This document shows, piece by piece, positions 3,557 through 52,689 of a stretch of 63,041 bases of DNA. Numbering within the stretch: the stretch's first letter is position 1; each line of letters opens with the position of its first letter. A model generated the notes under the pieces. That model had not been told where the DNA came from, ran no database searches, and saw only the letters and a program-made list of their open reading frames with translations. Origin of the DNA: Patescibacteria group bacterium. GTDB lineage: Bacteria; Patescibacteriota; Minisyncoccia; 2-02-FULL-40-12. A program made the translations under genes and the position numbers. The stretch covers positions 1 to 63,041 of the forward strand of contig JBBTUA010000003.1 in the NCBI GenBank assembly GCA_038063995.1, given 5' to 3'.

Positions 3557-4852
3557 ATGGATGAAAAAGAATTTCAAAAGCCATTAGAGCCTCCTACAGC
3601 GATTCCGCAACGAGCCGCAAGCGGCTCGGCGGAACCTTCGACGAGCAAAGATATAGAAGAATTATTAAAAGAGCTCCCGCCTGCTCCTAAAATTGCTTCT
3701 CCGCCTCCTTCTTCCAGCCCTTCTAAACCTATTACCTCTTCTCAACCAAACCCAAATCCTGCAGTAAAACAGGCAGAACCTTTGCCTAAACCAACAAAAC
3801 CGGAACCTTTGACGAGCAGCAGCAACTTCAAATCATTTGTCCGAACAATGGGAGAAGATATTGAGGCCGCGAAAAAGGGTTTAAAACCAGAACCAAAGCC
3901 TTTTGAAATTAAACCGCCTCCCGGCGGTCCGAAAATTGCTCCGCCCCCGCCGCCTCTCAAAATGCCTTCGCCCCAACCCGAAGTAAAGCTTGGGCCGTCA
4001 GAAAAAACAAAGCCTCTGGAATTGCCAAAAATTAACCAGCCAGCCAAAGGACCGGTTCCCATAATTTCTCCTCAAATTGGAAAAAAATCATTCCTGAATG
4101 TAAAACTTTTAATTCTCGTTTTGGCTTTGATTGGTGTTGCTGGCTCCGCCTGGTATTTCCTGACCAGAGGGCCTGAAGAAATAGCCGTCTCGCCTACGCC
4201 TACTCCAACTTCCCTTCCAACGCCCAAAAGCCTTCAAGAATTAATCTTTTCTTCCAACCAAATCGCTGTTCCTTCGACTGCAAACTTTGTAAATTATTTT
4301 TCCAGTGAATTAAAAAACAAGGCTGGCGAATTAAACAGCCAGCCGGGAAAATTCACTTATTTGAATCTTGCGGATGAAAACGGAACGCCTTATTCTTTTT
4401 CACAAATTATTTCAAAATTGAATATTGCTTTGCCCGCTGGATTTCTCGAAAGCCTTAGTCCAAATGAATGGATCATTTCCGCTTACACTCAACAGGAAAT
4501 GTTTGATAGCCAAGGAAATCTTGTATTCAACCAAAACCCAGAGACCAAACTTGCTTTCATAATAAAAATAACGGATCCGACAGTTTTAAGAAGCGCTTTA
4601 AACAACTGGGAGATAACTTTATCTAAAGATCTGGAGAAATTTTTTGAACTGGATTCCAAAAAGGCTACCAGCGACACTTTTCTCGACAATTTTTATAAAG
4701 GAGTTAATGCCCGTTATCGGAATTTCCCGTATGCCGATAAAACTATAGACTATGCTATTATCGATCTGCCTCAATTTAACGCAAGCTACCTTATTCTAAC
4801 CAACTCCCGCGAAAGCATTTACTCGGCCATTGATCTTTTGAAAAAGCAATAA
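3557..4852 (+). CDS. proline-rich single-pass membrane protein, unknown function
   Basis: 431 aa ORF; Pro-rich N-terminal half, one hydrophobic helix (LLILVLALIGVAGSAWYF), then a globular C-terminal half. Contains repeat copy 3596-3648 in frame. Confidence 0.6.
   Translation: MDEKEFQKPLEPPTAIPQRAASGSAEPSTSKDIEELLKELPPAPKIASPPPSSSPSKPITSSQPNPNPAVKQAEPLPKPTKPEPLTSSSNFKSFVRTMGEDIEAAKKGLKPEPKPFEIKPPPGGPKIAPPPPPLKMPSPQPEVKLGPSEKTKPLELPKINQPAKGPVPIISPQIGKKSFLNVKLLILVLALIGVAGSAWYFLTRGPEEIAVSPTPTPTSLPTPKSLQELIFSSNQIAVPSTANFVNYFSSELKNKAGELNSQPGKFTYLNLADENGTPYSFSQIISKLNIALPAGFLESLSPNEWIISAYTQQEMFDSQGNLVFNQNPETKLAFIIKITDPTVLRSALNNWEITLSKDLEKFFELDSKKATSDTFLDNFYKGVNARYRNFPYADKTIDYAIIDLPQFNASYLILTNSRESIYSAIDLLKKQ
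3596..3648 (+). repeat. GC-rich palindromic repeat, copy 1 (forward)
   Basis: acagcgattccgcaacgagccgcaagcggctcggcggaaccttcgacgagcaa; nested stems ttccgc/gcggaa and gagccgc/gcggctc. Confidence 0.85.
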
Positions 4853-6897: not shown

Positions 6898-7406
6898 CTC
6901 GGCATAATCAGAATCAGAGCTCTCGGCCTGCTCTTTAGAAAGCTTGCGCGAGCAATATAAATTTCTTCATAGGGGCGGCCCTTCTTGGAAATGGCACGCC
7001 ACTTTGCTCGAATTGCCGATAAATCAGGGTACCTCCGCCATAGATTTATATATTCGGCAATTCTTCGCAAAGATACCGGCCATTTCTCAATAAACTTCCC
7101 AATTCAGAAATTTATATTTCTCGCCGCTTTCTAATTTTTAAATTTTCCCAATGAAAAGAAAACCATTTCAGAATCAGAGCCGCAGGGTATGAATAATTTC
7201 TGAACTTCAAGAGAATAGAATACAAATAACTGAAAGATATGAAGAATTGACGGATAACATTAGTGTTATTCTGATAAACAATATAATGGGGTAGGGGTTC
7301 CCCATTATATTGTCGGCAATTCAATATATCTGAAGATTATTTGTTCTATGAGCTTGAGAGAAGAAATTATTCATACCCGAGAGGCTCTGATTATGATTAT
7401 GCCGAG
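6898..7406. repeat. 509 bp non-coding element bounded by ~29 bp imperfect terminal inverted repeats (IR block A)
   Basis: ctcggcataatcagaatcagagctctcgg (6898-6926) matches the reverse complement of 7377-7406 with 1 mismatch and 1 indel. The interior is homologous in inverted orientation to 15237-16065. Confidence 0.75.
7172..7392. repeat. ~220 nt nested imperfect palindrome (copy A)
   Basis: Arms 7172-7253 and 7313-7392 pair (for example gggtatgaataatttc 7185-7200 with gaaattattcataccc 7363-7378). The apex holds hairpins ataaca-ttag-tgttat and acaatataatgggg...ccccattatattgt. Confidence 0.8.
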
Positions 7407-8747: not shown

Positions 8748-9212
8748 ATGGCCTCCAGACATTTAGCCAGATCAATCGCAATCCAGTCCCTTTACGAGTG
8801 GGATTTTAAAAATTACCCTACTGAATTTTTACCCGAAATCATTAAAAGAAACATTGAAGAGTTTGGCCCGGGGCTCAAAGACCAGGAATTTGTTGCAAGC
8901 CTGATAAACGGAGTGGTAAGCCATAGAAAAGAGATCGATAATATCATTGAAAAGGCGGCGCCGATGTGGCCGATTGATCAAATCGATATGATTGACCGAA
9001 ATGTTCTGCGCTTGGGCCTTTATGAACTTATATACGAAAACAAAGAAGAGGTTCCGCCAAAAGTAGCCATAAATGAGGCAATTGAACTGGCTAAGAGTTT
9101 TGGCGGTGAAAGTTCGGGAAAATTCATAAATGGAGTTTTAGGAACTGTCTATAGAGAAATAGAGAAAGGCGGCTCCGAAAATAAGAACAGCGATTCCGCA
9201 ACGAATCGCTAA
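8748..9212 (+). CDS. nusB: transcription antitermination factor NusB
   Basis: 154 aa; RHLAR..A.Q.LYE start and NusB fold motifs. The last 8 codons and the stop lie in repeat copy 9186-9240. Confidence 0.9.
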
Positions 9213-9240
9213 AGCGATTCGGCGGAACCTTCGACGAGCA
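9186..9240 (+). repeat. GC-rich palindromic repeat, copy 2 (forward)
   Basis: aacagcgattccgcaacgaatcgctaaagcgattcggcggaaccttcgacgagca. Confidence 0.85.
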
Positions 9241-11065: not shown

Positions 11066-11472
11066 GCACCAGGGAGTTTGGACTATTTGCCGAAGGTATT
11101 GCCAGGCATTATCTTATTAAAAAAGGCTATAAAATCTTGGCCTCGAACTTTAAACTAAAATTTGGCGAGCTGGATATTGTCGCCCAAAAAGAAGATAAAA
11201 TAATCTTCTTTGAAGTAAAGGCCCTTAAAAACTCCTACGAAGACTATAATCCCGAAATGAGGGTTGATTACAAAAAGAAAAATAAATTAATTAAGCTTGG
11301 TCAAGCTTTTATGCTGTATAAAAAGCTGGATGATGTGCCCTGGCAGATAGATGTTATTTCGGTCACCTTGGATCCAGAAAATAGACCCGAAAAGTCCCGT
11401 GAGGGACCTCGGGTCACCTTTACGGGAAAAGCGAAAATAAAACATTTTAAAAATGCGTTCAGTGATAACTGA
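11062..11472 (+). CDS. YraN-family (UPF0102) endonuclease-like protein
   Basis: GE..A..YL...GY.IL..N.....GELDIVA......FFEVK motif. Confidence 0.75.
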   Translation: MSTREFGLFAEGIARHYLIKKGYKILASNFKLKFGELDIVAQKEDKIIFFEVKALKNSYEDYNPEMRVDYKKKNKLIKLGQAFMLYKKLDDVPWQIDVISVTLDPENRPEKSREGPRVTFTGKAKIKHFKNAFSDN

Positions 11473-11965
11473 AAATCAAAAAGAAACAAAAAAAATTGCC
11501 GGCGAGCTGGCTAAAAAACTGATTAGAAAAAAACCGGAAAAAGCCCTGGTTATAGCTTTATCCGGAGAGTTAGGAAGCGGCAAAACAACTTTTGTGAGCG
11601 GTTTTTCAAAAATACTGGGAGTTAACGAAAAAATCTTAAGTCCTACCTTTATTATAATGCACAAACACGAATTAAACCCTGGCAAAAAACCAAACAGCGA
11701 TTCCGCAACGAGCCGCAAGCGGCTCGGCGGAACCTTCGACGAGCAACATAAAACCTATAAATTTCTCTATCATATTGACGCTTACCGGCTAGAAAACAAA
11801 AATGACTTATTAAAACTCGGAGTTAAAAAACTTTTTTATAATCCTGAAAATATCGTTATGATCGAGTGGGCTGATAAAGTTAAAAAGATAATACCAAAAA
11901 GAACTGTCTGGATATATTTTAAACATTCAGGCAAAAATAAAAGAACAATAAATTATCACCTTTGA
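11453..11965 (+). CDS. tsaE: tRNA t6A37 biosynthesis ATPase TsaE, carrying an in-frame repeat insertion
   Basis: Walker A GELGSGKTTF, SPTF, LYHIDAYRL motifs. The 18-codon segment NSDSATSRKRLGGTFDEQ is encoded by repeat copy 11693-11746. Confidence 0.8.
   Translation: MRSVITENQKETKKIAGELAKKLIRKKPEKALVIALSGELGSGKTTFVSGFSKILGVNEKILSPTFIIMHKHELNPGKKPNSDSATSRKRLGGTFDEQHKTYKFLYHIDAYRLENKNDLLKLGVKKLFYNPENIVMIEWADKVKKIIPKRTVWIYFKHSGKNKRTINYHL
11693..11746 (+). repeat. GC-rich palindromic repeat, copy 3 (forward)
   Basis: aacagcgattccgcaacgagccgcaagcggctcggcggaaccttcgacgagcaa; the core is identical to copy 1. Confidence 0.85.
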
Positions 11966-15237: not shown

Positions 15238-15444
15238 CAAAAGTATAACCAATTTCTTCTCTCAAGCTCATAGAACAAATAATCTTCAGATATATTGAAT
15301 TGCCGACAATATAATGGGGAACCCCTACCCCATTATATTGTTATTGAAGAAAAAGAAAGTAAGGTAGCAATCCGTCAATTCTTCATATCTTTCAGTTATT
15401 TGTATTCTATTCCCTTGTAGTTCAGAAATTGGTTATACTTTTGC
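15237..15444. repeat. ~208 nt nested imperfect palindrome (copy B)
   Basis: gcaaaagtataaccaatttc (15237-15256) is the perfect reverse complement of 15425-15444. The interior matches copy A except for the outer stem and one apical sub-hairpin. Confidence 0.8.
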
Positions 15445-16065
15445 CAGTCTTTTTTGAGATTCCGTCTCGGCAGACCTCACCGGCGAAGCCCAAAGAAAAA
15501 AGCGGTTTGATGTTATCGTACCGCTTTGGAAGCTACATAAAGACCTCTGGCCTCTTCGGATTTTAGAACTTCTTTTGCATAGAACTGCAAGATATAATCC
15601 TTAGCTCACCTCCATATTAAGAACTCAACAAAACCAATATTTAACTAAGTTTCTAAAAGGCCTGAAAAAATGGCTTGATGCGCCTGTGCCTGAAATATTA
15701 GTTAGAATCTACTAGAGATACAAAATACTGGCTTTATTGAGCCCTAAATGCCTCAAAGAGAGAAATTTAACTATACCTACATTATAGCACTAAGATATAT
15801 AATTTGTCAAATGCAAACTTTTGGTCTCTGTTTTAGTATAGAAAGCAGATTAAAAAAGAAAAATAGAAAGCGGCAAGGCGTATCAATTTCTGAGTCGGGT
15901 AGTCGTCTTAGAAAATGGCCGGTATCTTTGCGAAGAATTGCCGAGCTTTAATAAATCTATAGTGGAGGTATCCTGATTTATCGGCAATTCGAGCAAAGTG
16001 GTGAGCCATTTTCAAGAAGGGCTCCCAAACGAAGAAATTGATATGCCTTGCGCAAGCTTTCTAAA
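15237..16065. repeat. IR block B: inverted-orientation copy of 6934-7378, with a ~400 bp extra insert
   Basis: 15251-15342 is a 92 nt perfect reverse-complement match to 7277-7368. 15855-16065 matches the reverse complement of ~6934-7140 with scattered mismatches. It lacks the terminal inverted repeats of block A. Confidence 0.8.
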
Positions 16066-16071
16066 TTCCTA

Positions 16072-17013
16072 ATGATCATCTTTCTCCACGGCCAAGACTC
16101 ATACAGTTTAATTCAATACGTAAACAATCTTATCGCCAGATACGAAAAAAAATATCCGGGCAGTTTTAATTTCCATCGCTTCGACTTGGAAGAAGACGAT
16201 CCTGCCGAAATCAAAAATGTAATCAAGAGTACATCGTTTTTCAAACAGGTAAAATTCGCAGTCGTCAAAAATCCATTTGCCAAAAGTGAAGTTATGGAAA
16301 AATTGATAAAGGAAAATAGCCTGGAAAAAGACAAAGATTCGGTTTTGCTTCTTTATCAAACAGGCGAAGAAGAAAAGTTTAAAAATTTGAAGTTATTTGA
16401 TTTATTGAATAAAACGGCTCAAATAAAAGAATTCAAACCGCCGGAACGGCCAAAAGCCGCGAAATTCGCCTCTGATTATCTTTCAAAAAACCAGATATCA
16501 ATAGAAAGAACAGCCTTGAATAAGTTAGTCAAAGAAGGCGGCTCTGATTTTTGGAGGCTTAAAAATGAACTTGATAAACTTATTAATTTTTCAAAACAGA
16601 ACAAAGCCATAAATCTAAAAGAAGAAGATCTTTCAAAGTTAGTCAGTTTTAAACTTGACCAGAATATTTTTAACATCCTTGACTCTCTTTTTTCAAACCA
16701 AAGCAAAGCTTTGCTTCTTCTAGAGGATTATTTTTCTTCCGGCGGCGACCCTCTTTACCTTATTTCAATGATTGCTTTCCAGCTAAAAAATATGCTAATA
16801 GTTCGAGAGTTGATAGACAAAAAAATGCAGTACGCCCAAATCCTTAAAAAGACCGGCATGCATCCGTTTTTCTTCAAAAAAATTTACGAGGCATCTAAAA
16901 AATACAGCCTTAGCGACTTAAAAAATATTTTCCGAAAAGCAGTTGATTTTGAAATGGCTTTAAAAACAGGCCAGGCTGAAGCTGAAACCGCTTTTTTCAA
17001 AATTTTTCTTTAA
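16072..17013 (+). CDS. holA: DNA polymerase III delta subunit
   Basis: N-terminal IIFLHGQDSY start and overall delta-subunit layout. The ORF track starts at a TTG (16048) inside the repeat; the ATG at 16072 is more plausible. Confidence 0.7.
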   Translation: MIIFLHGQDSYSLIQYVNNLIARYEKKYPGSFNFHRFDLEEDDPAEIKNVIKSTSFFKQVKFAVVKNPFAKSEVMEKLIKENSLEKDKDSVLLLYQTGEEEKFKNLKLFDLLNKTAQIKEFKPPERPKAAKFASDYLSKNQISIERTALNKLVKEGGSDFWRLKNELDKLINFSKQNKAINLKEEDLSKLVSFKLDQNIFNILDSLFSNQSKALLLLEDYFSSGGDPLYLISMIAFQLKNMLIVRELIDKKMQYAQILKKTGMHPFFFKKIYEASKKYSLSDLKNIFRKAVDFEMALKTGQAEAETAFFKIFL

Positions 17014-17066
17014 CAGCGATTCCGCTACGATTCGCTCCGCGAATCGGCGGAACCTTCGACGAGCAA
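17012..17066 (+). repeat. GC-rich palindromic repeat, copy 4 (forward)
   Basis: aacagcgattccgctacgattcgctccgcgaatcggcggaaccttcgacgagcaa; it begins inside the holA TAA stop. Confidence 0.85.
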
Positions 17067-26725: not shown

Positions 26726-28852
26726 ATGTGGATTTGGCTTTTAGTTACATTAGGTGTTCCCCTTCTGCTTTTTATGTTTAAAATAGGCATAGTTTTAGCT
26801 TTTGCTGAAATCATTATTGGAATATCAGGAAATCTTATTAATCAAGCAATCTATGCGCAGGACTTTTTCTTAAATCCGGAACTGCTTCAAACTATTTGGG
26901 CTCTTATTCGTGATTTTATAAATATCTTTTTTATTCTTATTCTCTTGGTCATCGCTTTTGCCACGATTTTTAATAAACCGACAGAATATACGGCAAAACA
27001 ATTACTTTCAAAACTTATCATCGCAGCTCTTTTGATAAATTTCAGTTTAGTCATCGGACTTTGGGTTATAGATATTCTTTGGACTCCGGCACAAATTTTC
27101 TATAACCCCTTAAGCAAGATTGAATCTGACGGCCAAAGAACTCCAATAATCACCGAGAAACTGGGTCAAGTACTGAAAATACAAGAATTTTTTGGAATAG
27201 AAAATTTAAACCCGAAAGATTTAATAATAGAGAAAATGACACCCCTAGGCCTTGGGGGAGTTGTTAACTTTGTATCTAGCCCTATAGAAAATAGCCTCAC
27301 CTTAATAATAAAAGGTTTCCTGATTGTTTTAGAAGCATTTATTTATGCCTGGATAGCTTTGATTCTTTGGGTAAGAATCCCGGTGCTTCTGGGGCTCATG
27401 CTAGTTTCTCCAATTGCCTGGCTCGGATACACTGTTCCTAATATTAAAAAACAGACTTGGAGCGCCTGGTGGCAACACTTATTCTGCTGGGCCGCGATTC
27501 CAATGATTATTTTCGGCCTTATTTACTTTACGATTCTTTTAGGCAATCAATTATCGCTGAAAATAGAAAATTTAAAGAGCACGACTCAAGGATCATTTTT
27601 AATAAAAGAGGTTCCCTATTTAGGCCTTGAAACCGGTACATTTATGGTATGGCTGATTACTTTTGGCCTTTTGTGGGGAGGTATGATTTATGTAAGAAGT
27701 TTGTCCTGCGGTTTATATGGTTGGGCGGAAAAAGGACTGAAAAAAACATGGGGATGGGCTGGAAAAACGAGGGATTGGGCTTATACTGCTTCAGGAGCTA
27801 AAGCCCCGATTGAAAAAGTCCAAAAAGAATTCAAAGAAGGAGGAATCCCGATCGCAGGAAGAAGATTCTTAGGAACTGCCCAAAGAGAAGCACGCGAGAC
27901 AAGAATTGAAGATCGGCTTAGAGCCTGGGCCGGTTTGGGCCCGACCTTCGCGGCCCAGAAAAATCTTTTAGATTCCGCGGAAAAGCAAACTAAAGATGTC
28001 GAAAATAGAATTAAACAGGCCCGGAATACTGATGAGTTGAAAAAAATTACTGATGAACTTAAAGAGACGGCTAAAAAAGGAAAAACGGATCCAGAAACTC
28101 TAGCCACGATCAATACTTTGGCTAAAAGAGGTGAATTGGATGTCGATTTGTTCAACCAAGCGGTTAATAATTTCAAAAATATGCCTCTGGCTTTAAGCAA
28201 AGTGATGACCGAATGGAAAGAAGGAAAGTTTGGCGGTATAACTTTGGATCAATTTATAGAAAAAATGAGAGATGAAGAAGGAAAACTATCACTTGATGCA
28301 AGAAGAGTAATGTACAGCTTCGCCGCTTCTGATGATGGTAAAAAAGTAGCAGAAAAAATGGAATATGAAGATTTTGATAAAGGCATACAAATCGTAGGTC
28401 AGCATACGAAAGCCGGCAGAGATTTCACTAAATTCTGGGGCGATTCCAATCCGCTTTATGTAGCAAAATATAGATTTGATAATATAACCGACCCGATAAA
28501 ATCTGGATATAGCCAAGAAGATCTGCAAAAAATTCAATCCCTTCAGGATGCAATCAGGGAACAGATGAAAAAAGCAAGCGTTAAAAATATCGGAGATTAC
28601 TTTCCCAAGACTTGGGACGGCAGCGAAGATATTGATGGTATAAAAATGGGAGAACGATTTGAAGGCGCGCTAGCGGCGATATTAAGAGAAAAACAAAATA
28701 GAGGGACGGCTACACAATTCGTTTCCGAGTTAAGAAGGAAGTTGCGTCGCGAAGGAAAAGACAAACAATTAGAAGTACTGAATGGGGTTATGAGGGATAT
28801 AGGAATGCAAGCCCCTGAAGTTATATACCAAGGGGAACAAACAGAATTATAA
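26726..28852 (+). CDS. polytopic membrane protein, VirB6/TrbL/PrgH-like position
   Basis: 708 aa; N-terminal ~350 aa with many hydrophobic helices, C-terminal ~350 aa charged and coiled. Located just upstream of the PrgI-like and VirB4-like genes. Confidence 0.5.
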   Translation: MWIWLLVTLGVPLLLFMFKIGIVLAFAEIIIGISGNLINQAIYAQDFFLNPELLQTIWALIRDFINIFFILILLVIAFATIFNKPTEYTAKQLLSKLIIAALLINFSLVIGLWVIDILWTPAQIFYNPLSKIESDGQRTPIITEKLGQVLKIQEFFGIENLNPKDLIIEKMTPLGLGGVVNFVSSPIENSLTLIIKGFLIVLEAFIYAWIALILWVRIPVLLGLMLVSPIAWLGYTVPNIKKQTWSAWWQHLFCWAAIPMIIFGLIYFTILLGNQLSLKIENLKSTTQGSFLIKEVPYLGLETGTFMVWLITFGLLWGGMIYVRSLSCGLYGWAEKGLKKTWGWAGKTRDWAYTASGAKAPIEKVQKEFKEGGIPIAGRRFLGTAQREARETRIEDRLRAWAGLGPTFAAQKNLLDSAEKQTKDVENRIKQARNTDELKKITDELKETAKKGKTDPETLATINTLAKRGELDVDLFNQAVNNFKNMPLALSKVMTEWKEGKFGGITLDQFIEKMRDEEGKLSLDARRVMYSFAASDDGKKVAEKMEYEDFDKGIQIVGQHTKAGRDFTKFWGDSNPLYVAKYRFDNITDPIKSGYSQEDLQKIQSLQDAIREQMKKASVKNIGDYFPKTWDGSEDIDGIKMGERFEGALAAILREKQNRGTATQFVSELRRKLRREGKDKQLEVLNGVMRDIGMQAPEVIYQGEQTEL

Positions 28853-28854
28853 AA

Positions 28855-29292
28855 ATGCCGACAACAATATACGAGTATAAAACTTACAATCCATATGATG
28901 TTTATTTAAACAGCAAGGGTCGAGATCCAACAAAAAATCTTCCCGAAAAATTTCAGGATTTTATTTTTGATGCCACACCAGCGGATTTCATTAAAGACCA
29001 AATTTCTGCGCCTTTAATCTTGAATGAAAACCAATCCCAAGAATTGGCAAAAATTGTTTTAGAACTGATTTTGGCCGACATTTATCTAGGAAATATAGTC
29101 CAAGAAATTAAAAATCGGCTGAAAATAACCGACGACCAGAAAGCGAAAACCATCGCCGGTTTGATTGTGAATGGCTTATTCGCTCCGATTCTGGAAGAAT
29201 TAAAGAAGATGCACATAGAGAAGTTTGCAAAGAACCTGCCAAAAACACCGCAGCAGGACGATAGAATAATTGATTTAAAAAATAACGTATGA
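28855..29292 (+). CDS. hypothetical soluble protein (145 aa) in the T4SS-like operon
   Basis: ORF abutting both neighbours (2 nt gap upstream, 4 nt overlap downstream); no family recognised. Confidence 0.55.
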   Translation: MPTTIYEYKTYNPYDVYLNSKGRDPTKNLPEKFQDFIFDATPADFIKDQISAPLILNENQSQELAKIVLELILADIYLGNIVQEIKNRLKITDDQKAKTIAGLIVNGLFAPILEELKKMHIEKFAKNLPKTPQQDDRIIDLKNNV

Positions 29293-29570
29293 GATTCCAA
29301 GTTCCCCAATTCATTGAAACTGAAACAAAAATAGTCGGCCCCCTGACCTGGAAACAATTCATCTGGGTGGCTATCGGAGTTGGCCTTTTGCTTCTTTTGT
29401 TCCGAATTGCTTCGGGCACTGTTTTTGTGTTTCTTTCGATCATAGTCATTGCCGTTTTCGGCGGCTTGGCTTTCCTTAGAATAGAAAACCTGCCTTTGAT
29501 AGAATATCTATCAAGGGCTTTGGGTTTTGCTTTAGGACCCAAAAAATACTTATTTAAAAAAGGAGAGTAA
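29289..29570 (+). CDS. PrgI/VirB3-like small two-TM protein
   Basis: 93 aa; MRFQVPQFIETETKIVGPLTWKQFIW N-terminal motif followed by two TM helices; directly upstream of the VirB4-like genes. Confidence 0.6.
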   Translation: MRFQVPQFIETETKIVGPLTWKQFIWVAIGVGLLLLLFRIASGTVFVFLSIIVIAVFGGLAFLRIENLPLIEYLSRALGFALGPKKYLFKKGE

Positions 29571-29574
29571 TGAA

Positions 29575-30177
29575 ATGGCAAAAGCCGCAACAACCACGCA
29601 ATTTGTAGAAATAAAGGAGATCCGAGACGATGTTTTGATTTTAAAAGACGGCTCTTTGAGACAACTCATCAAAATCGGCTCGACAAACTTTGAATTAAAA
29701 TCCCAGGATGAGCAAGCCGCAATTCTTCAGGGTTTCCGAGATCTGCTCAATGCTTTGGATTTTTCTTTGGAAATTATGGTGATGTCGAGAAAACTGAATA
29801 TTAACAAATATCTCGAATTTCTGGACGAAGTGGCTGAATCACAGCAAAACGAACTAATGAGGATCCAGGCCATTGAATATTCCAGATTCGTAAAAGAATT
29901 GACCCAGCTGGCTAACATTATGTCAAAGGATTTTTTCGTGGTTGTTCCATTTTATTTAGGCCCCCGAACAAAAGGAGGTATCAGGGAAATTTTTAAAAAT
30001 ATTTTTAAGCCGGGCCGAATTATCAGCCAATTGACGCCGGAAGAATTTGAATCGTATAAATCCCAGCTCAATCAAAGAGTTTCTCTGATTTATGAAAATC
30101 TGGCCGGCCTCGGACTTGGGGCAAGAATTTTAAAACAAGACGAGCTATTGAGTCTTTATCAACGGCTCTACGATTAA
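29575..30177 (+). CDS. VirB4-like N-terminal domain protein (separate ORF)
   Basis: 200 aa; pattern V.I..I.D..L..KDGS....I......F.LKS..EQ..I...F...LN.L.F...I resembles the N-terminus of VirB4/PrgJ-type ATPases. TAA stop immediately followed by the ATG of the next ORF. Confidence 0.5.
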   Translation: MAKAATTTQFVEIKEIRDDVLILKDGSLRQLIKIGSTNFELKSQDEQAAILQGFRDLLNALDFSLEIMVMSRKLNINKYLEFLDEVAESQQNELMRIQAIEYSRFVKELTQLANIMSKDFFVVVPFYLGPRTKGGIREIFKNIFKPGRIISQLTPEEFESYKSQLNQRVSLIYENLAGLGLGARILKQDELLSLYQRLYD

Positions 30178-31935
30178 ATGGACGAACAAAAAAACCAAAC
30201 CATAGACGAAATTCTGGCCCCTTCGGCAATAAGCGTTGCTTCAAACTACATTCAAGTGGGCGAGAAGCTTTCGAAAACTCTTTTTATTTCCGGCTATCCA
30301 AGATACCTGAATTCGAATTGGTTTTCGCCGGTGATAAATTTGGATCAGGAGTTAAATATCTCCTTTTACATCCATCCCGAGGATACGGTTAATATTTTAA
30401 GGAAATTAAGAGACAGGTTGGCCAAGCTTCAGGCCCAGGCAATCGAGGAACAGGAAAAAGGCAAAGTCCGCGACCCGGTTCTGGAAACAGCCATAAACGA
30501 TATCGAAATTCTGCGCGACAAGCTCCAGCTTGGAACCGACCGTTTTTTCAGATTCGGCCTTTATGTAACGATCTTGGGGAAAGACCAAAAAGAACTCGAT
30601 GAGACAGAAAAGATAATCAAGAACTCTTTGGAATCACAGCTGATTACGGTTAAACCGGCTACTTTCCAAATGAAAGAAGGATTTACATCTTCCTTGCCTC
30701 TGGGCAAAGATGAACTGGGAATCTCTTCACCCTTGAATACGGAACCGATTTCCTCAAGCTTCCCGTTTGTCTCGTATGATCTAACCCAAGATCAGGGTCT
30801 CCTTTACGGCATTAATATGCACAATAACTCTCTTATTCTGTTTGACCGGTTTAGCCTCGAAAATGCGAATCAGGTAGTTTTTGGAACGAGCGGCGGAGGC
30901 AAATCCTACACCGTTAAGCTGGAAATTCTCCGCTCTATTCTTTTCGGGACGCAGATTTTTGTTATAGACCCGGAGCACGAATACAAGCACGTGGCCGAAA
31001 CCCTCGGGGGCTCTTTTATAAAAATATCTATCGCCTCTGACAGCCATATCAATCCGTTTGACCTACCCAATCCCCGCGAAGACGAAAGTCCGGAAAATGT
31101 TTTTAGAAGCCACACTCTGGACTTGACCGGATTGATGAAAATAATGCTTGGGGAAATGACTCCTGAAGAAGAATCTATTCTTGACGAAGCCTTGATCCAA
31201 ACTTACGCCGCAAAAGATATTTATCCGGATAGGGATTTTTCTCAAAAAGAACCTCCTTTGATGAGCGACTTGCAAAATATCCTTGAGAGCATGACCGGAG
31301 CCCAGTCTTTAGCCACAAGGCTTAGAAAATATACTGAAGGGACTTTTGCCGGATTCCTCAATCAGCCGACTAATGTAATGCTTGATAACCAGCTGGTTGT
31401 ATTCTCAATCAGAGATATGGAAGACGAATTAAAACCCATAGCAATGTATCTGGTTTTGAATTTCGTCTGGACAAAAATCAGAAAAGAATTGAGAAAAAGG
31501 CTTTTAGTCGTAGATGAAGCCTGGTGGCTTTTAAAAAACGAAGCCGGCGCAAATTTCCTTTTGAATACGGCTAAAAGAGCCAGGAAATATTTCTTGGGCC
31601 TCACAACTATTTCCCAAGACGTCCCCGATTTCATAAATTCTCCTTACGGCAAACCCATTGTGACGAACTCGGCTTTGCAGCTTTTAACGAAGCAGAGCCC
31701 TGCCGGGATCGAAACAGTGAAAGAAACATTCAATCTTACCGAAGCCGAAAAAATAACTTTGCTGGCATCCCGAGTGGGGCACGGACTCTTTTTTGCCGGG
31801 CCAAACCACGTCGCCATTAAAGTGGTGGCTTCCTATACCGAAGACCAGATAATCACCTCTGACCCAAGACAGATACTGGAAATTAAGGAAGCGAAAAGAG
31901 CCTGGCTGAAAGATAATAGCGAATCGCATGCCTGA
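30178..31935 (+). CDS. VirB4/TrbE/PrgJ-like type IV secretion ATPase (C-terminal ATPase part)
   Basis: Walker A FGTSGGGKSYTV, Walker B LLVVDEAWWLL, GYPRYL motif near the N-terminus, ISQ sensor-like motif. Confidence 0.8.
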   Translation: MDEQKNQTIDEILAPSAISVASNYIQVGEKLSKTLFISGYPRYLNSNWFSPVINLDQELNISFYIHPEDTVNILRKLRDRLAKLQAQAIEEQEKGKVRDPVLETAINDIEILRDKLQLGTDRFFRFGLYVTILGKDQKELDETEKIIKNSLESQLITVKPATFQMKEGFTSSLPLGKDELGISSPLNTEPISSSFPFVSYDLTQDQGLLYGINMHNNSLILFDRFSLENANQVVFGTSGGGKSYTVKLEILRSILFGTQIFVIDPEHEYKHVAETLGGSFIKISIASDSHINPFDLPNPREDESPENVFRSHTLDLTGLMKIMLGEMTPEEESILDEALIQTYAAKDIYPDRDFSQKEPPLMSDLQNILESMTGAQSLATRLRKYTEGTFAGFLNQPTNVMLDNQLVVFSIRDMEDELKPIAMYLVLNFVWTKIRKELRKRLLVVDEAWWLLKNEAGANFLLNTAKRARKYFLGLTTISQDVPDFINSPYGKPIVTNSALQLLTKQSPAGIETVKETFNLTEAEKITLLASRVGHGLFFAGPNHVAIKVVASYTEDQIITSDPRQILEIKEAKRAWLKDNSESHA

Positions 31936-32380
31936 TATTAGAAAAAATCTCATTATAATTTGTTTTCTTTTAGTCGGGTTAGTCCTGATTCTTGTTTATC
32001 TTAACTTTAATACTCCCAGAAAAACCCAATCAGCCCAAATATTGGATAGCACTCCTGAACTAAAAGCTCTGCCTGAAAAAGAAACGGTAAAAGATGAATT
32101 TCTTAAAAACTTTGAGGAAGCGGTTTTTTCTCCAGACAGAAGAAAAATAGCTTACTTAAATCAAGGAGCTATTTACATATCTAATCCTGACGGCTCTGAA
32201 TCAAAAGAAATTCTAAAAACCAGAATAAAAAACCTGGAACTATTATGGCCGAAGCCAGAATTTCTTGTTTTAAAATCCGGAGAAAACGGCGGCCAAACAA
32301 TATTTTTAATAAATCTTGAAGACGGTAGCCTGAAAAAATTAGACGAACAAACTGGTTTTCCTGTAGAGAACCGAGAATAA
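31928..32380 (+). CDS. single-pass membrane protein, unknown function
   Basis: 150 aa; N-terminal TM helix, and an extracytoplasmic segment with a TolB/beta-propeller-blade-like SPDRRKIAYLNQGAIYISNPDGS. Overlaps the previous ORF by 8 nt. Confidence 0.55.
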   Translation: MPDIRKNLIIICFLLVGLVLILVYLNFNTPRKTQSAQILDSTPELKALPEKETVKDEFLKNFEEAVFSPDRRKIAYLNQGAIYISNPDGSESKEILKTRIKNLELLWPKPEFLVLKSGENGGQTIFLINLEDGSLKKLDEQTGFPVENRE

Positions 32381-33568
32381 GGCAATCGTAACCAAAATTT
32401 CAGTAACTAAAGTGGTGAAAGAAGCGCCGATATAAGAATATCTTGGGATTACCAAGAGATTGGCAAAAATGTTTAAGGCCGCTCCGGAAAGATAGATCCA
32501 CATCCCGAATTTTTGAAGCTCCAAAGCGATTAAAGCTTTCCCTGCCAAGTTATTCAAAAAAACCATACCAACGACAACAGCCAGAATTTTCAAAGGCAAG
32601 GCTGAATCCGCAAAACCCTGCCCTCCAAGAAGCAAAACAATCAGATCGGCAAAAACAATTAACCCGATAACAACCGGAATGGCCATTAAAAAAAGAAGCT
32701 TGAATGTTTTTTTAAATGCCCTATTAAAATCGTCCGCCTTTTTAAAAGCAAATTGAGAAAGCGAAGGCATAGACAATTCAACCAGCAGAGCCGGGAAAAA
32801 AATCAGTGTTTCGATAAGCTTGGCGGCCAGCCTGTATATCCCGACGTCAGAAACCGGCTTCATAAAAGAGAGCATTATGGCGTCGGTCCTAATGTAGATT
32901 GCGGTGAAAAGAATAGACAAGGCGACGGGCAGGGAACTTTTTAAGATTTTCCCGGCATAGGAAAAATCCAAACCGAGCCTGAATCGAATAAAACGGCGCG
33001 AGAAATAAAATACTAAAACGAATTGGACTCCGGCGGTTAAGGCGAGAACCCAAACAAAGGCCAAAAGATCAAAACCTGCTTTGACTCCGTAAAATACAAG
33101 ACCAAGCTGAATAAGTCTGGTCAGAACGTCTGAAAAGGAAACAAGGTAAAAAGTGCTGTATTTTTGGAATATGCCGCCTAGCACTTGGCTCAAAGACGAG
33201 AAAAATACAAACAAGGAAGCGACAATGATTCCGGTTTTTATTTCAGAAGAATACGGCAGGAAAAGAGACAAAGCTATAGCCAGTAAAACTACCAGCCCAA
33301 GCAAGATCAGCCTAAGAGTAAAGATATTCCCTGAAATAAATTCCTCTTTTTCAGGATGACGGGAAATCTCTCTAACATGAATAATATGAAGCCCGAAATC
33401 GGCTAAGATCGTAAAAATAAATAAATACGAGAGTATTGTCTCGTAAGCGCCGAAGCCCTCTTGCCCCAGATGCCTGGTTAAAAAACCTATGACGGCTAGG
33501 CCGATAAAAGCCGTTATTACTCTTGAAACCGAGGCGGCAAAAAAATTTTTGTAGATTGAGGTATTCAA
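32339..33568 (-). CDS. MOP-superfamily polysaccharide/lipid flippase (Wzx/MurJ-like)
   Basis: 409 aa; ~12 hydrophobic helices with typical polysaccharide biosynthesis protein layout. Confidence 0.7.
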   Translation of the reverse strand: MNTSIYKNFFAASVSRVITAFIGLAVIGFLTRHLGQEGFGAYETILSYLFIFTILADFGLHIIHVREISRHPEKEEFISGNIFTLRLILLGLVVLLAIALSLFLPYSSEIKTGIIVASLFVFFSSLSQVLGGIFQKYSTFYLVSFSDVLTRLIQLGLVFYGVKAGFDLLAFVWVLALTAGVQFVLVFYFSRRFIRFRLGLDFSYAGKILKSSLPVALSILFTAIYIRTDAIMLSFMKPVSDVGIYRLAAKLIETLIFFPALLVELSMPSLSQFAFKKADDFNRAFKKTFKLLFLMAIPVVIGLIVFADLIVLLLGGQGFADSALPLKILAVVVGMVFLNNLAGKALIALELQKFGMWIYLSGAALNIFANLLVIPRYSYIGASFTTLVTEILVTIALFSVLYRKTSLFV

Positions 33569-34047
33569 ATAGGCCTTATCATTACCCTTCTCCTCGGCTC
33601 TTCGCCGATGCTTTCAGTTTTGATATCCGGCCAGGAAGAAAGTTCCAGATGCACAAGCCTTCTTTCATAAGCAGACATTGGTCTTAGAGTAAATGACTTT
33701 TGAGTAGTCTGAACTTTTTCAGCCACCAGTCTTGCCAGCTCGGATATACGGCCATTCCTCTTCTCCAGAAAATTATTTAAATCCAAAATTAAACCAACTC
33801 TTTGATCCAAATCTTTTAAAGCGGTGAGCCTTACAAGATGCTCCAAGGCCTTCAGGTTTCTTCCTTTCTCATCTAAAAGCAGGGAGCAATCATCATTTGA
33901 ATTTATTTTCGCTATATAAACGTCTTGACCTTCTAAATTAGAGTTTCTTTGAATACTTATTTCGTCAAAACTAAAACCGGCTTTTTTAAAAAGGTTTTCA
34001 ATCGCGCTTCGAATCAAGTTTTCTATCTGATTCTCCTGATTTTCCAT
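33565..34047 (-). CDS. jag: Jag/SpoIIIJ-associated KH-R3H RNA-binding protein
   Basis: C-terminal R3H motif (ERRLVHLELS) and a position downstream of yidC. Confidence 0.8.
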   Translation of the reverse strand: MENQENQIENLIRSAIENLFKKAGFSFDEISIQRNSNLEGQDVYIAKINSNDDCSLLLDEKGRNLKALEHLVRLTALKDLDQRVGLILDLNNFLEKRNGRISELARLVAEKVQTTQKSFTLRPMSAYERRLVHLELSSWPDIKTESIGEEPRRRVMIRPI

Positions 34048-34705
34048 AAATCTTGTTAATATAGACCTGCTCCAGAATGGAAAAAACCGTTGTGGTTATC
34101 CAGTAAAGCGGCAGGCCGGCAGGAAAACTAATCGAAATTATTATAGTGATTAAAGGGAAAAAGTACAACATCTGCTGATTCATCGCGCTAAAAGGGCTGG
34201 AATTTGGGCTTTTTTTCTCTAGAATTTGGCCTTTTTGCGATGAGATATTTGTCTTGGCCTGGAAAAATTGGGTTATCCCGGCAACCAAAGCTAGCGGGAT
34301 ATTTCTTTTGGTCAAATCTATAAAACCCAATGAAATAGGATCAGCCTGAAATCCGGCAGTAGAAACCTGATATAAGGCTATAAGTATTGGGAGCTGGATC
34401 AAAAGAGGCAAGCAGCCTGAAAACGGATTAACTTTATTCTCGCGGTAAAGTTCCATTGTTTTTTGGGCTTGTTTCTGCGGGTCTGCTTTATATTTTTCCT
34501 GAATTTCTTTTATTTTGGGCTGAAGTTCGGCCAAGGCTTTTTGCGATTTAATCGTCTTTATCGAAAGAGGACTTAGGATAAACCTGATAATCAAGGTCAA
34601 TAAAATTATGGCGATTCCAAAATCGTTAAAAGCGGCAGTACTATATAAAAAAACAAGAAAATTAAATAAGGGAGTGAAAAAAAATGTATTAAACAGCCCG
34701 CTCAT
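33998..34705 (-). CDS. yidC: membrane protein insertase YidC (short form)
   Basis: PL.IK..KSQ.A...LQP...EIQ.KYK.D.Q......M.LY.....NP..GCLP.LIQ.PI..ALY. Confidence 0.92.
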
Positions 34706-34932
34706 AGAAAATCAACGCCCCCGGCTGACCAAGGGCCGCATCTTAAGATTCTGAAAAAAGATTTCCAAAGCCCTTTTGCAAGGCCGTATTTATTTATAGC
34801 CCGGATAGAATATTCAGAACAAGACGGGTAAAAACGGCAGCTATTCAAAAGACTAAAAAAACGACCCGGCTGATGATCGGGTGAGATGGTTTTTTGATAT
34901 AAACTTATGAATTGAATGACAATCTCTTTCAT
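34702..34932 (-). CDS. yidD: membrane protein insertion efficiency factor YidD
   Basis: YQ..ISP.....CRF.PSCS.Y...A....G...G.......RI.RC.P. Confidence 0.9.
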
Positions 34933-35264
34933 TTAAGCTTGCCTAAATCTTTCAAAAGGTTGGTTTTCAAAGAATTTTTATCCAAGATCAGAGCCTTTTC
35001 TTTTGCTATGACCAAAATCACAAAACCTGGCTTTACCCGGGAAATATTAATTCTTATTATTTCCGAAATTCTCCTTTTTATTTTATTGCGTGAAGCCGCA
35101 TTTTTAAAATTCTTTGCTCTGGCTATTACCGCAAACTTGCTTTGATTATTTTCTGAAAAATTGAACTTGATTTGAAAAAATTCAGAATTAATGCTGCGGC
35201 CGTATCGAAAAATCTTCCGAATCTCCCGCTCGTCAGATAATCTAAATTTTCGGCTCAAGGCCAT
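34929..35264 (-). CDS. rnpA: ribonuclease P protein component
   Basis: 111 aa basic protein between rpmH and yidD; A..RN..KR..RE motif. Confidence 0.85.
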
Positions 35265-35407
35265 TAAAGTGCCAGTCTTTTTCTATTTTTCCTCCTCCTT
35301 CTCTTTAAGACGTTTCTTCCAGCCCGGGTTTGTCTTCTTTTTCTAAAACCGTGCTTTCTTTTTCTTTTTTTCTTGGAAGGATGAAAAGTTAAGGCTTTTG
35401 ATTGCAT
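35264..35407 (-). CDS. rpmH: 50S ribosomal protein L34
   Basis: Hand-translated 47 aa MQSKALTFHPSKKKRKRKHGFRKRRQTRAGRNVLKRRRRKNRKRLAL. The TAATG overlap joins its stop to the rnpA start. Confidence 0.85.
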   Translation of the reverse strand: MQSKALTFHPSKKKRKRKHGFRKRRQTRAGRNVLKRRRRKNRKRLAL

Positions 35408-35567
35408 AGTTTTTAGATTAACCTTTTTCTTTTGTCTGGTCAATTGTCTGGTTTGACAAACAAGAATACAATATGTTTGTTAATCAACCTGATATTAACA
35501 AATTTTCAACTTAACTAAATTTGTTATTTAAGCAATCAATAAAATAGAATTATTAAGCAAAGCGAAA
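35408..35567. other. rpmH-dnaA intergenic region, candidate part of oriC / dnaA promoter
   Basis: Canonical rpmH/dnaA divergent arrangement; tandem ttgtctggt repeats and inverted taacaaattt/aaatttgtta. I found no perfect TTATCCACA box. Confidence 0.35.
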
Positions 35568-46928: not shown

Positions 46929-48152
46929 ATGCTTTTAGACATCAAGCAGTTTATGTCAGCCATAAAGCAGATTGCCGAAGAAAAAGGGATTAGCGAACAA
47001 AAAATAATCGATACGATAAATGCGGCGCTCGCCTCAGCCTATAAAAAGGATTACGGCAGGAAAAGCCAAATAATCAGGGCAAAATTAGATCCGTCAAGCG
47101 GCCATATTTCTGTGTGGCAGGTTAAATATGTAGTTGAAGGAGTTGATGAAGAAGGCTACATCACCGGTTTTTCTTTGAAAAAAGATTTAGCCCCGGGCTT
47201 TGCTTTTGATGAGGAAAGCGGTTTAAGACTTGAAGGAGAAGAAGGAGAAATAAGAGTTAAGTTTAATCCTGAAAAACATATTCTTGTTGAGGAAGCGAAA
47301 AAGGCAGACGCTTCTTTAAAACCGGGAGACGAATTGGTTCTTCCTTTGGAAGAGAAAAGTGATTTTGGAAGAATTGCTGCCCAGACGGCAAAACAGGTTA
47401 TTGTCCAAAGGCTTCGCGAAGCGGAAAGAGAATCGGTGGCAGAGGAGTATAAAAAGATGATTGGTTTTTTGGTGAGCGGAACGGTTCAAAGGCGCGAAGG
47501 GAGGCATATTTATCTTGATATCGGAAGGGTTTTAGGCGTTCTCCCTCCTGCTGAACAGAATTATTTAGATAATTATTCAGTAGGCCGGCGTTTTAAAGCT
47601 TTGATCTTGGCTATTGAAGAAACTTCAAAAGGCCCGATGATTGTTTTGTCTCGTTCTCATCCCAAGCTTTTAGAGAAGTTGTTCGAACTGGAAGTGCCTG
47701 AGATTTCAAACGGCTCTGTTTTGATTAAAGGAGTAAGCCGCGAATCCGGCTCCCGTTCTAAAATCGCTGTTTGGTCAAAAGATGCTCATGTTGATCCAAT
47801 TGGCTCCTTGGTTGGCCAGAAGGGGATCAGGGTTCAGACTGTTATCAATGAACTTTCGGGCGAGAAGATAGATATTGTTGAGTGGTCGGAAGACCCGGCC
47901 AAGTTTGTTGTTGGCGCGATGTCTCCTGCCAAAATTTCCGATGTCAGAATTTTAGATGATAAGAAAAAGCATATTTTAGTTGAAGTTCCGGATGACCAAT
48001 TTTCGTTAGCTATCGGAAAAAGAGGCCAAAATGTCAGGCTGGCCGCAAAACTTACAGGCTGGAAAATAGATGTTCGTTCTCCGAAGGAGGAAATGAAAGC
48101 CGAAGAAGCAGATCTCGTCGAAGGTTCCGCCGATTCGCGGAGCGAATCGTAG
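46929..48152 (+). CDS. nusA: transcription termination/antitermination factor NusA
   Basis: N-terminal domain, S1, and two KH domains (IGKRGQNVRLA..TGWKIDV). The last ~12 codons and the stop come from repeat copy 48114-48164. Confidence 0.92.
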   Translation: MLLDIKQFMSAIKQIAEEKGISEQKIIDTINAALASAYKKDYGRKSQIIRAKLDPSSGHISVWQVKYVVEGVDEEGYITGFSLKKDLAPGFAFDEESGLRLEGEEGEIRVKFNPEKHILVEEAKKADASLKPGDELVLPLEEKSDFGRIAAQTAKQVIVQRLREAERESVAEEYKKMIGFLVSGTVQRREGRHIYLDIGRVLGVLPPAEQNYLDNYSVGRRFKALILAIEETSKGPMIVLSRSHPKLLEKLFELEVPEISNGSVLIKGVSRESGSRSKIAVWSKDAHVDPIGSLVGQKGIRVQTVINELSGEKIDIVEWSEDPAKFVVGAMSPAKISDVRILDDKKKHILVEVPDDQFSLAIGKRGQNVRLAAKLTGWKIDVRSPKEEMKAEEADLVEGSADSRSES

Positions 48153-48164
48153 CGGAATCGCTGT
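48114..48164 (-). repeat. GC-rich palindromic repeat, copy 5 (reverse)
   Basis: ctcgtcgaaggttccgccgattcgcggagcgaatcgtagcggaatcgctgt is the reverse complement of the family consensus. Confidence 0.85.
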
Positions 48165-52625: not shown

Positions 52626-52689
52626 TGTTCGTCGAAGGTTCCGCCCCCGTAGAACCTAAAGGGTTTTTACGGGGTTGCGAAATCGCTGT
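52626..52689 (-). repeat. GC-rich palindromic repeat, copy 6 (reverse, different inner hairpin)
   Basis: tgttcgtcgaaggttccgcc...ccccgta..tacgggg...ttgcgaaatcgctgt; the family termini are retained but the inner stem is replaced. Confidence 0.7.

Follow-up and report, generated by a model that had tools for sequence, protein, structure and literature searches.

Palindromic repeats that lie in frame in many unrelated genes have been described as Rickettsia palindromic elements (RPE; Ogata et al. 2000 Science 290:347, as cited in PMC10969869). Furthermore, some MITEs are described as carrying open reading frames, forming in-frame fusions and affecting the expression of neighbouring genes (PMC10969869). 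In the present work a GC-rich palindromic repeat from a Patescibacteria group bacterium was analyzed, one copy of which interrupts the reading frame of tsaE without breaking it. The whole stretch of DNA that was analyzed comprises 63,041 nucleotides and is called the window in the following.

In its behaviour the element is nearest to the RPE. It is found in frame in unrelated housekeeping genes as well as in intergenic positions, it occupies fold-compatible positions, and it occurs in several related reduced genomes. An earlier reading of the window, made from the sequence only, had pointed to this resemblance, and in-frame insertion into unrelated housekeeping genes is now supported by nine further validated cases and by two variants in the related contig L158. 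However, the RPE unit has a length of ~100-150 bp and each RPE family encodes one conserved peptide, whereas the element described here is 48-63 nt long and is read in three sense frames as well as antisense. It also differs from the RPE in being GC-rich in a genome with 41% GC, in its conserved arms and hypervariable inner stem and in its groundwater Patescibacteria hosts. The element is not a member of an RPE family though alike in behaviour, and is set apart by its unit size and by the peptide rule. Homology to the RPE-1 to RPE-10 sequences is not expected, since by its S15 relatives the host belongs to the Patescibacteria and not to the Rickettsiales.

In architecture the element is nearer to REP elements or attC sites. 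With REP elements and REPINs it shares the short GC-rich imperfect hairpins present in many copies, the preservation of structure over sequence, and the lack of target duplications and of any terminal inverted repeats other than the hairpin itself; in both cases a mechanism that is strand-specific and uses single strands is plausible. However, the foot of a REP is a 5' GTAG-type tetranucleotide, whereas an invariant ACAG(CG) is found here (43/43). REPs are extragenic and often arranged as inverted doublets, whereas the copies described here are singletons throughout and about a quarter of them are intragenic. REPs moreover flank a RAYT (HUH Y1) gene, whereas none was detected here by Pfam in the window or by a weak tblastn search of 312 kb. 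attC sites resemble the element in their conserved outer boxes, which are inverted and contain extrahelical or bulged bases, in the variable inner stem and in the strand-specific use, but the R''/R' core sites (RYYYAAC/GTTRRRY) are absent by consensus inspection, and neither cassettes nor an IntI or other integrase were found in the window. Like the MITEs (Correia, ERIC, BOX, Nezha, QMITE), the element is a non-autonomous repeat. MITEs, however, make target-site duplications, of which none longer than 1 nt is seen here in three clean pairs of filled and empty sites; their terminal inverted repeats match those of a parent IS, whereas the element has a bulged outer stem alone and no IS was detected in the sequence examined; and they usually measure 100-400 bp instead of 48-63 nt. 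Finally, the GC clusters of yeast mitochondria are mobile GC-rich palindromes in an AT-rich compact genome, with in-frame copies in var1. These are organellar, however, and their sequence and likely also their mechanism are unrelated to those of the element described here.

Copies of the element in the window and their hairpin

The window has a GC content of 40.7% and contains six full copies of the arrangement ACAGCGATTCCGC, variable hairpin, GGCGGAACCTTCGACGAGC, which does not occur in shuffled sequence. The 19-nt right arm GCGGAACCTTCGACGAGCA gave 7 matches in the window with up to 3 mismatches, as compared to none in 100 dinucleotide-preserving shuffles, and the left arm AACAGCGATTCCGC matched the same six places with 0-2 mismatches. 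A covariance model (R1) was built from a seed of nine copies and used to search the window with filters switched off. It returned six strong matches (56-84 bits) and nothing else above noise in 63 kb. All six copies of the sequence-only reading are thus present, with their bounds reset to ACAGCG at the 5' end and GACGAGN at the 3' end. The copies, the host gene tsaE and one weak match are located as follows:

3596..3646, + strand: element copy of 51 nt, in frame in the gene of a 431-aa Pro-rich protein (3557-4852), 13 codons in; encodes TAIPQRAASGSAEPSTS
3785..3824, + strand: weak match to the right arm only (arm at 3800-3818), 8.6 bits with R1, inside the gene of the 431-aa protein; encodes CCGGAACCTTTGACGAGCA
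9187..9239, + strand: element copy of 53 nt at the nusB/rnc junction; the rnc ATG (9240) abuts its 3' end
11453..11965, + strand: tsaE host gene, 170 aa (PF02367, 3.8e-30)
11694..11744, + strand: element copy of 51 nt, in frame in tsaE; encodes (N)SDSATSRKRLGGTFDE in the loop between SPTF..HKH and LYHIDAYRL
17013..17064, + strand: element copy of 52 nt, flanked by holA (last base of its TAA stop at 17013) and by a glycosyltransferase gene that starts at 17077
48113..48164, - strand: element copy of 52 nt at the 3' end of nusA, before tig, antisense; NusA tail LVEGSADSRSES
52627..52689, - strand: element copy of 63 nt from the long-inner-hairpin subfamily, intergenic, 21 nt downstream of the HU gene and upstream of a tRNA cluster

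The weak match at 3785-3824 may be a degraded copy, although this assignment is uncertain. The copies at 3596 and 11694 are 100% identical over 53 nt. Five of the six copies touch a coding region, as had been counted before, but only the two in tsaE and in the gene of the 431-aa protein are internal and in frame. In nusB and nusA the C-terminal tail is replaced and the stop codon is supplied by the element: the loop of the hairpin contributes the TAA that follows the NusB tail ...NSDSATNR, and the copy at 48113-48164 codes for the last 12 residues of NusA together with the stop. The copy at 17013 shares a single base with the stop codon of holA. The window also contains a separate repeat, a long hairpin of ~200 nt which resembles a classical MITE.

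The nested hairpin that had been drawn for each copy is borne out by folding. Between its bounds ACAGCG...GACGAGC the element measures 48-63 nt, and each copy forms one long nested hairpin with a folding energy of -21 to -23 kcal/mol (z = -2.6 to -4.1). The outer part is composed of a 3-bp and a 6-bp helix (CGA, TTCCGC / GCGGAA, TCG), which are split by a 3-nt CCT bulge on the 3' side, and the inner stem-loop comes after a 2-nt bulge on the 5' side. The arms are invariant, which in the metagenome copies is partly imposed by the search pattern, and the sequence of the inner stem is freely variable yet paired. Outside the pattern, conservation is nevertheless found for the A before CAGCG (43/43) and for GCA(A) after CGACGA (29-35/43). 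In the nine seed copies 96% of the cells pair, as compared to 16-52% when the partner is slid as a control, and three inner pairs are changed on both sides. The 49 matches that were aligned comprise at least 12 different inner stems of 6 to 16 bp, all of them paired. Template switching from one arm of a palindrome to the other is another possible source of paired changes; this covariation therefore shows that the hairpin is maintained, but not why, and does not prove selection for structure. Folding energy was also considered as a means of choosing the strand and was discarded as uninformative, because the complementary strand is always ~2.3 kcal/mol more stable owing to a single G·U pair which is constant within the conserved arms. 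The commonest subfamily is free of stop codons in all six frames.

The insert in tsaE and orthologous sites in related genomes

The tsaE gene of the window retains all invariant TsaE motifs, i.e. Walker A GxxGxGKTT, SPTF, HxDxYR and EW. Read in frame, its element copy yields NSDSATSRKRLGGTFDE(Q), and the 17 residues NSDSATSRKRLGGTFDE have no counterpart in an alignment with the 27 nearest homologues. In a set of 122 retrieved TsaE sequences, NSDSA or GGTFD is found in the TsaE of the window alone (0/121 others). L158, a Hainich groundwater contig, is collinear with the window over 0.9-22 kb at 70-75% nucleotide identity, and its tsaE site is empty: AAACCAATC is directly followed by CAACATAAA, as opposed to AAACCAAAC-AGCG...GACGAG-CAACATAAA in the window, which corresponds to a net gain of 48 nt. 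Thus, the in-frame insert of the sequence-only reading stands, but its size of 18 extra codons has to be corrected to a net 16 codons (48 nt) relative to the nearest orthologue, with 17 residues encoded by the element. By comparison with the 27 aligned and all 121 other homologues and with the empty site in L158, the insertion in TsaE is lineage-specific, as had been anticipated. An origin as an ancestral loop of the protein is excluded, since none of the 121 other retrieved TsaE homologues has the segment.

The loop holding the insert has 39 aa here, as compared to a median of 16 aa in 119 homologues. Alignment to the solved TsaE structures 5NP9, 5MVR, 1HTW and 6N9A gives two blocks (query residues 6-72 and 105-168), which are split at the insert. 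An AlphaFold2 model of the TsaE of the window, computed from the alignment, has a mean pLDDT of 85.6; residues 81-85 and 88-94 are below 50 and the rest is mostly above 90. The stretch of low pLDDT is a predicted coil between the strands 69-73 and 104-109. The suggestion that the insert falls in a surface loop agrees with this mapping, as the model places it in a predicted disordered coil between two beta-strands and the PDB alignments split exactly there. The insert is expected from the model to lie in a disordered, length-variable loop and thus in a tolerated position.

Orthologous sites which are filled in one genome and empty in another were found for tsaE, nusB/rnc, holA and its next gene, polA, the M23 peptidase gene, yidC, tatD and the gene of the 431-aa protein. 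The window itself is devoid of the element at the orthologous sites of yidC and tatD and of the junctions in L154, L136 and L134. Insertion after divergence would account most simply for these differences between sites, and we infer the mobility of the element from such presence and absence alone. The site in the gene of the 431-aa protein is cleanly empty in L164 and L165 (LEPP/KDIEE), and L158 has a decayed 36-nt relic there, KAIPAPREPSPS, which has lost 15 nt and kept the frame. In L158 and L165, nusB and rnc overlap and the element is missing; likewise, holA and the next gene overlap (ATGA) in L158, without the element. At nusB/rnc, three genomes have palindromic inserts that are unrelated to each other, whereas two further genomes have no insert; the junction can thus be regarded as a permissive spot. 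The nusA/tig copy, on the other hand, is common to the window and L132/L068, with the same right junction and an identity of 52/52, as compared to ~69% identity in the flanks. What looked like a relic of the element in tatD of the window is ordinary coding sequence, namely that of the conserved ATAGLHPNN.

Three clean pairs of filled and empty sites define the unit: L154 against the window at 54641 (53 nt), L143 against tatD of the window (63 nt), and the window against L164 and L165 in the gene of the 431-aa protein (51 nt). In these pairs the unit is ACAGCG...GACGAGC, placed just before an A, and no target duplication longer than 1 nt is present. More generally, the flanks show a moderately conserved C at position -3 and an A after the element, and no consistent duplication. 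One copy in fmt is flanked by a 15-nt direct repeat, which is itself a tandem heptamer and whose duplication would break the frame. In L140, L149 and L153 a 50-nt unit lies inside a common composite repeat of ~190 nt and has a different inner stem in each case, which indicates that the elements are modular.

Distribution of the family and regularities of its copies

The search of metagenomes was performed with the pattern CAGCGATTYCGC-N12-42-GGCGGAACCTTCGA, in which the two arms are fixed and by which divergent relatives are missed. It yielded 39 loci, all from groundwater-type samples, namely the Hainich wells H51, H41 and H14 (0.1 µm fraction) and three JGI samples. Three further loci were found in the GTDB genome CAYIZI01. 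The full two-arm pattern was found in Patescibacteria-like groundwater contigs only, and these come from independent assemblies. The 17-nt right arm alone was rejected as a probe for genome contigs: 115 of its 118 loci represent chance matches in GC-rich genomes or a GGTFDE-type coding motif of Bathyarchaeia, and only three, all in the MAG CAYIZI01, are real. Covariance model and pattern scan together thus bear out the expectation of further copies, with the 39 metagenome loci and the three of one GTDB genome. After removal of five duplicates, 44 non-redundant copies were retained, among which orthologous and subfamily-related copies are still counted. They are known from 63 kb of the source genome and from fragments of its relatives.

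The relatives of S15 are labelled Patescibacteria group, Parcubacteria group, Ca. Paceibacteria and Ca. Yanofskybacteria, and the host is, as judged from these relatives, a CPR bacterium of the Parcubacteria type. With R1 no copy was found in 11-14 kb of collinear sequence from L164 and L165, whose S15 is 81-82% identical, nor any copy of the family in the 20-kb locus L162 from a more distant Parcubacteria genome. The lack of copies in L164 and L165 and the differing sites between genomes argue for a family confined to a sub-clade. Two scans of viral contigs and a plasmid collection gave no copies of the element. In Rfam 15 only the tRNAs passed the gathering threshold, and the element itself gave a chance-level miRNA match (E = 3.4). 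When the six reading-frame peptides were concatenated and used as a query, 50 word-sharing candidates were obtained, none of them with E <= 10. A full-text literature search of incomplete coverage, which leaves absence unproven, found no description of such elements in CPR/Patescibacteria, and we regard the element as a new family among the small mobile palindromes which coding sequences tolerate. Other small palindromes act alike: in L161, TCCCGCTAAGCGGGA is present in frame in tsaE and at the nusB/rnc junction. The insertion of small palindromes in genes looks general in this part of the CPR, as far as the compared contigs indicate.

About three quarters of the copies are located at gene junctions and about a quarter are intragenic. 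In-frame intragenic copies were validated by a reading frame open across the element together with Pfam domains on both sides, or by an orthologue; other gene calls in the loci follow a crude ORF rule, the Pfam check having been applied to the intragenic cases alone. Ten copies were validated in this way, in tsaE, the gene of the 431-aa protein, fmt (two), and the genes of an NDH-2-like flavoprotein, CysRS, YidC, TatD, a GT4 glycosyltransferase and a 2-hydroxyacid dehydrogenase. The two fmt copies occupy the same insertion site in two genomes, and the copy in the 2-hydroxyacid dehydrogenase gene (2-Hacid_dh) is antisense. In addition, L158 has two variants, recognised through synteny alone, at sites where the window is without them: one of +69 nt (23 aa) in polA, and one of +48 nt (16 aa) in reverse orientation in the M23 peptidase gene.

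The unit length is a multiple of three in 32 of the 44 copies, many intergenic ones included. All ten validated intragenic copies have such a length and are free of stop codons in the frame of the host, and the 12 copies of other lengths are all at gene junctions (12/12). This association of length with location has a Fisher p of 0.026, which is indicative only, as the copies are phylogenetically non-independent. Among the intragenic copies, each of the three sense frames is used (NSDSAT.., TAIPQ..AEPSTS, QQRF..), and so is the antisense strand (LLVEGSADS..), which argues against selection for a particular peptide. Furthermore, of the 39 copies that could be assigned, ~34 have the strand drawn here in the sense orientation relative to the host or adjacent genes (~34:5). 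At least seven copies end 0-1 nt ahead of a start codon, and several upstream ORFs stop 25 or 40 nt inside the element. The window also contains dnaA and dnaN, with four copies to the left on the + strand and two to the right on the - strand. A replichore rule for the orientation was considered and not retained, as the yidC copy in L129 breaks it, the GC skew is noisy and no cluster of DnaA boxes was found; it is a lead only.

Origin and maintenance of the repeat

The tsaE segment is most likely a copy of a mobile, non-autonomous REP/RPE-like hairpin repeat, which is translated where it is tolerated. The repeat would have multiplied in one clade of Patescibacteria (Paceibacteria/Parcubacteria-like), with new copies inserted more or less blindly and without target-site duplication. 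Purifying selection would then remove nearly all copies, and two harmless kinds would remain. Copies of the first kind would lie at the junctions of tightly packed genes, often giving a stop to the upstream gene and abutting the ATG of the downstream one. As neighbouring genes overlap, the exact stop/start junction is the only harmless non-coding site, and adjacency to an ATG would thus result without targeting. Those of the second kind would be intragenic, a multiple of three in length, stop-free and placed in a loop, a linker or a terminal tail. The rule for length and frame, the use of several frames, the positions in loops and linkers and the relic that has kept its frame all agree with this view. 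We infer that such inserts are translated, presumably into a short hydrophilic disordered peptide; in TsaE the outcome would be ~17 extra residues on a surface hairpin loop, with the ATPase motifs untouched.

Among the alternatives, a chance or low-complexity match, an assembly artefact or an ancestral TsaE loop can practically be dismissed. The right arm of 17 nt is indeed frequent by chance when taken alone, as in GC-rich genomes and in the GGTFDE-type motif of Bathyarchaeia; the shuffles, however, contain no copies, the two-arm pattern is limited to Patescibacteria-like groundwater contigs and recurs in independent assemblies, and the segment is missing from the other TsaE homologues retrieved. 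It is also very unlikely that the insert is removed or skipped at the level of RNA or translation, by an intron-like excision or by bypassing as in the mitochondrial byp elements, leaving the protein unchanged. Such a process might be suspected from the hairpin with its two bulges on opposite strands and from the RtcB and archease encoded in L162, but L162 is a Parcubacteria locus without a copy of the element, and by our own reading the geometry of the hairpin, with its 2-nt and 3-nt bulges around a 6-bp helix, departs from the canonical bulge-helix-bulge. Moreover, with removal or skipping the intragenic copies would have no need to be stop-free multiples of three, nor would the relic in L158 need to retain the frame.

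A more serious alternative, to which we nevertheless assign a low probability, is that the hairpin is mainly a functional cis-acting module kept by selection, e.g. an operon-punctuating RNA (a hairpin for processing or stabilization, or a site for protein binding) or a strand-specific DNA site, and that the intragenic copies are by-products. This would fit the prevalence of the mRNA-sense strand (~34/39), the copies which end at a start codon or provide an upstream stop, the multiple-of-three lengths (32/44) that extend to many intergenic copies, and the nusA/tig copy. ATG adjacency is, however, expected where intergenic space is close to zero. At the same junctions, close relatives lack the element and the genes simply overlap, and the three unrelated palindromes at nusB/rnc speak for a permissive site instead of a required signal. 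The copies in unrelated coding sequences in any frame, the relic decaying in L158 and the lack of an Rfam match likewise argue against a primary function of this kind. Some copies may have been exapted as functional signals.

Two observations are not covered by the mobile repeat as outlined above. At the ~69% identity of the flanks, an identity of 52/52 in the nusA/tig copy has a neutral expectation of 0.69^52, i.e. ~4e-9. As neutral selfish DNA should have decayed, the preservation of this copy calls for gene conversion between copies or else for selection at the level of the nucleic acid. The bias of ~34:5 towards the sense strand is not predicted by random DNA insertion. With regard to the mode of transposition, the lack of target duplications and of inverted repeats beyond the hairpin, the bulged stem with its free inner stem and the strand bias fit enzymes acting on single strands better than a DDE cut-and-paste mechanism. 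Tentatively, the repeat might have spread as a folded single strand, with which the pairing in all inner stems would also agree, through an enzyme provided in trans, either of the HUH/Y1 kind (RAYT or IS200/IS605-like) or resembling the integrases that act on attC. By Pfam, neither a transposase nor a RAYT or an integrase was detected in the window, and a search for HUH enzymes in 312 kb of related loci gave noise only; with IS608 TnpA and E. coli YafM sequences as queries and motif regexes, the latter is a weak test. A further and rather improbable extension would be a strand-specific hairpin system in which the bulged stem is fixed and serves for recognition, whereas the inner stem can be exchanged; a putative Patescibacteria enzyme would propagate and homogenise the copies, and some of these would be domesticated as operon punctuation. 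Such a system would explain the sense-strand bias, the perfectly conserved ancient copy and the three inner stems at a common composite site.

Overall, Patescibacteria are regarded as extremely streamlined, yet a proliferating repeat is tolerated here inside the essential tsaE, polA, cysS, fmt and yidC. 'Selfish DNA in proteins' of the RPE kind is thus not peculiar to Rickettsia, and the element is a source of lineage-specific loops and altered termini in CPR proteins. For annotation and structure prediction, this means that odd GC-rich inserts in CPR proteins may be derived from repeats. As a natural marker, the element could also serve to follow the dynamics of strains in groundwater communities. 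Should the strand bias and the concerted conservation be due to a dedicated enzyme, this would point to a new single-strand hairpin recombination system.

Composite repeat and arm look-alikes

In three of the loci retrieved for comparison, the 50-nt element was found to be one module of a larger, composite repeat (about 190 nt), inside which it is flanked by further conserved hairpins (GGCCGTTTTG...CAAAACGGCC). The composite copies are located as follows:

L140:5700-5960, composite repeat
L149:1480-1720, composite repeat
L153:200-440, composite repeat

The inner stems differ among all three copies. At L140 the entire composite repeat, corresponding to about 64 amino acids, lies in frame within a GT4 glycosyltransferase.

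The 17-nt right arm of the element (GGCGGAACCTTCGACGA) also occurs in Bathyarchaeia genomes (L031, L036, L049, L059, L062, L072, L075, L080 and L100). In those genomes the arm codes for a conserved motif of the AVGGTFDELH type near the N-terminus of a single gene's product, a motif typical of nucleotidyltransferases. These matches are unrelated to the element.

Other repeats and the putative origin region of the window

A second repeat family in the window, unrelated to the element, consists of an intergenic, near-perfect hairpin of about 200 nt, and a 36-nt palindrome (ACAATATAATGGGG..CCCCATTATATTGT) is present in two copies of opposite orientation:

window 15853-16063 (+), ~200-nt hairpin repeat
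window 6936-7146 (-), ~200-nt hairpin repeat
L122:2998-3209, ~200-nt hairpin repeat
L140:~4572-4778, ~200-nt hairpin repeat
window 7278-7313, 36-nt palindrome
window 15306-15341, 36-nt palindrome

The long hairpin is conserved to about 80% between genomes and its DNA fold has an energy of -55.8 kcal/mol (z = -8.7). Its appearance is that of a classical MITE or of a structured RNA; comparison with Rfam gave only sub-threshold matches to the plant miRNA precursor families MIR821 and MIR8562. The distance from the 36-nt palindrome to a copy of this hairpin is about 130 nt in one case and about 500 nt in the other.

The region at 33565-38254 looks like the chromosomal origin region and contains:

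(-) strand, jag/R3H, yidC, a 76-aa ORF (34702-34932) and rnpA, facing dnaA and dnaN
35568-36938 (+), dnaA
37154-38254 (+), dnaN

The spacer between dnaA and dnaN has a GC content of 22%, and the search revealed no clustering of canonical DnaA boxes. The four copies of the element to the left of the putative origin region are all on the + strand, and the two copies to its right are both on the - strand.

Several further features of the window were recorded:

28855-32380, type IV secretion-like gene cluster amid ORFs without family match
29289-29570, PrgI, within this cluster
30178-31935, VirB4/TraG-like ATPase, within this cluster
59500-63039 (-), very large ORF (>1149 aa) extending past the window end
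57370-57425 and 27908-27963, two strong hairpins, GC-rich and not members of the element family (-30 and -28 kcal/mol)

GC skew is positive across the secretion-like cluster and differs in the surrounding sequence. Within the very large ORF there are repeats 429-558 nt long, together with a domain of the Peptidase_S74 (endosialidase chaperone) family and GC-rich hairpins at 59526-59756. Of the two strong hairpins, the first adjoins a tRNA pair and the second is situated within a 708-aa ORF (26726-28852).

Palindromes in tsaE and at the nusB-rnc junction of relatives

A close relative (L163:5093-5704) carries a LAGLIDADG-like ORF, with a faint Pfam match, between infB and rpsO; this ORF is missing from the window. 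In a more distant Parcubacteria genome (L162:10001-10531), the TsaE loop that carries the element in the window is occupied by a GC-rich palindrome (AKASAGRQ), with tandem CACCYAA repeats after it (HLTPNTQHPTPNT). Genes for RtcB and archease are present at this locus as well.

A small palindrome of a different kind, TCCCGCT(T/A)AGCGGGA, is found in another Parcubacteria genome (L161:6001-6487 and L161:3857-3936), once within the N-terminal portion of TsaE, where it keeps the frame (SRLAGLKPHLARQ), and a second time at the nusB-rnc junction. The TsaE of this genome has an additional insert at the C-terminus, DPEAEPSARYGAG; the DNA encoding it (GCAGAACCTTCGGCTCGC) is similar to the element's 3' arm. 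In a third relative (L164:12064-12163), an insert of about 100 nt at the nusB-rnc junction is AT-rich and palindromic and is built from CGAAT/ATTCG motifs. Unrelated palindromes have thus landed repeatedly at the nusB-rnc junction.
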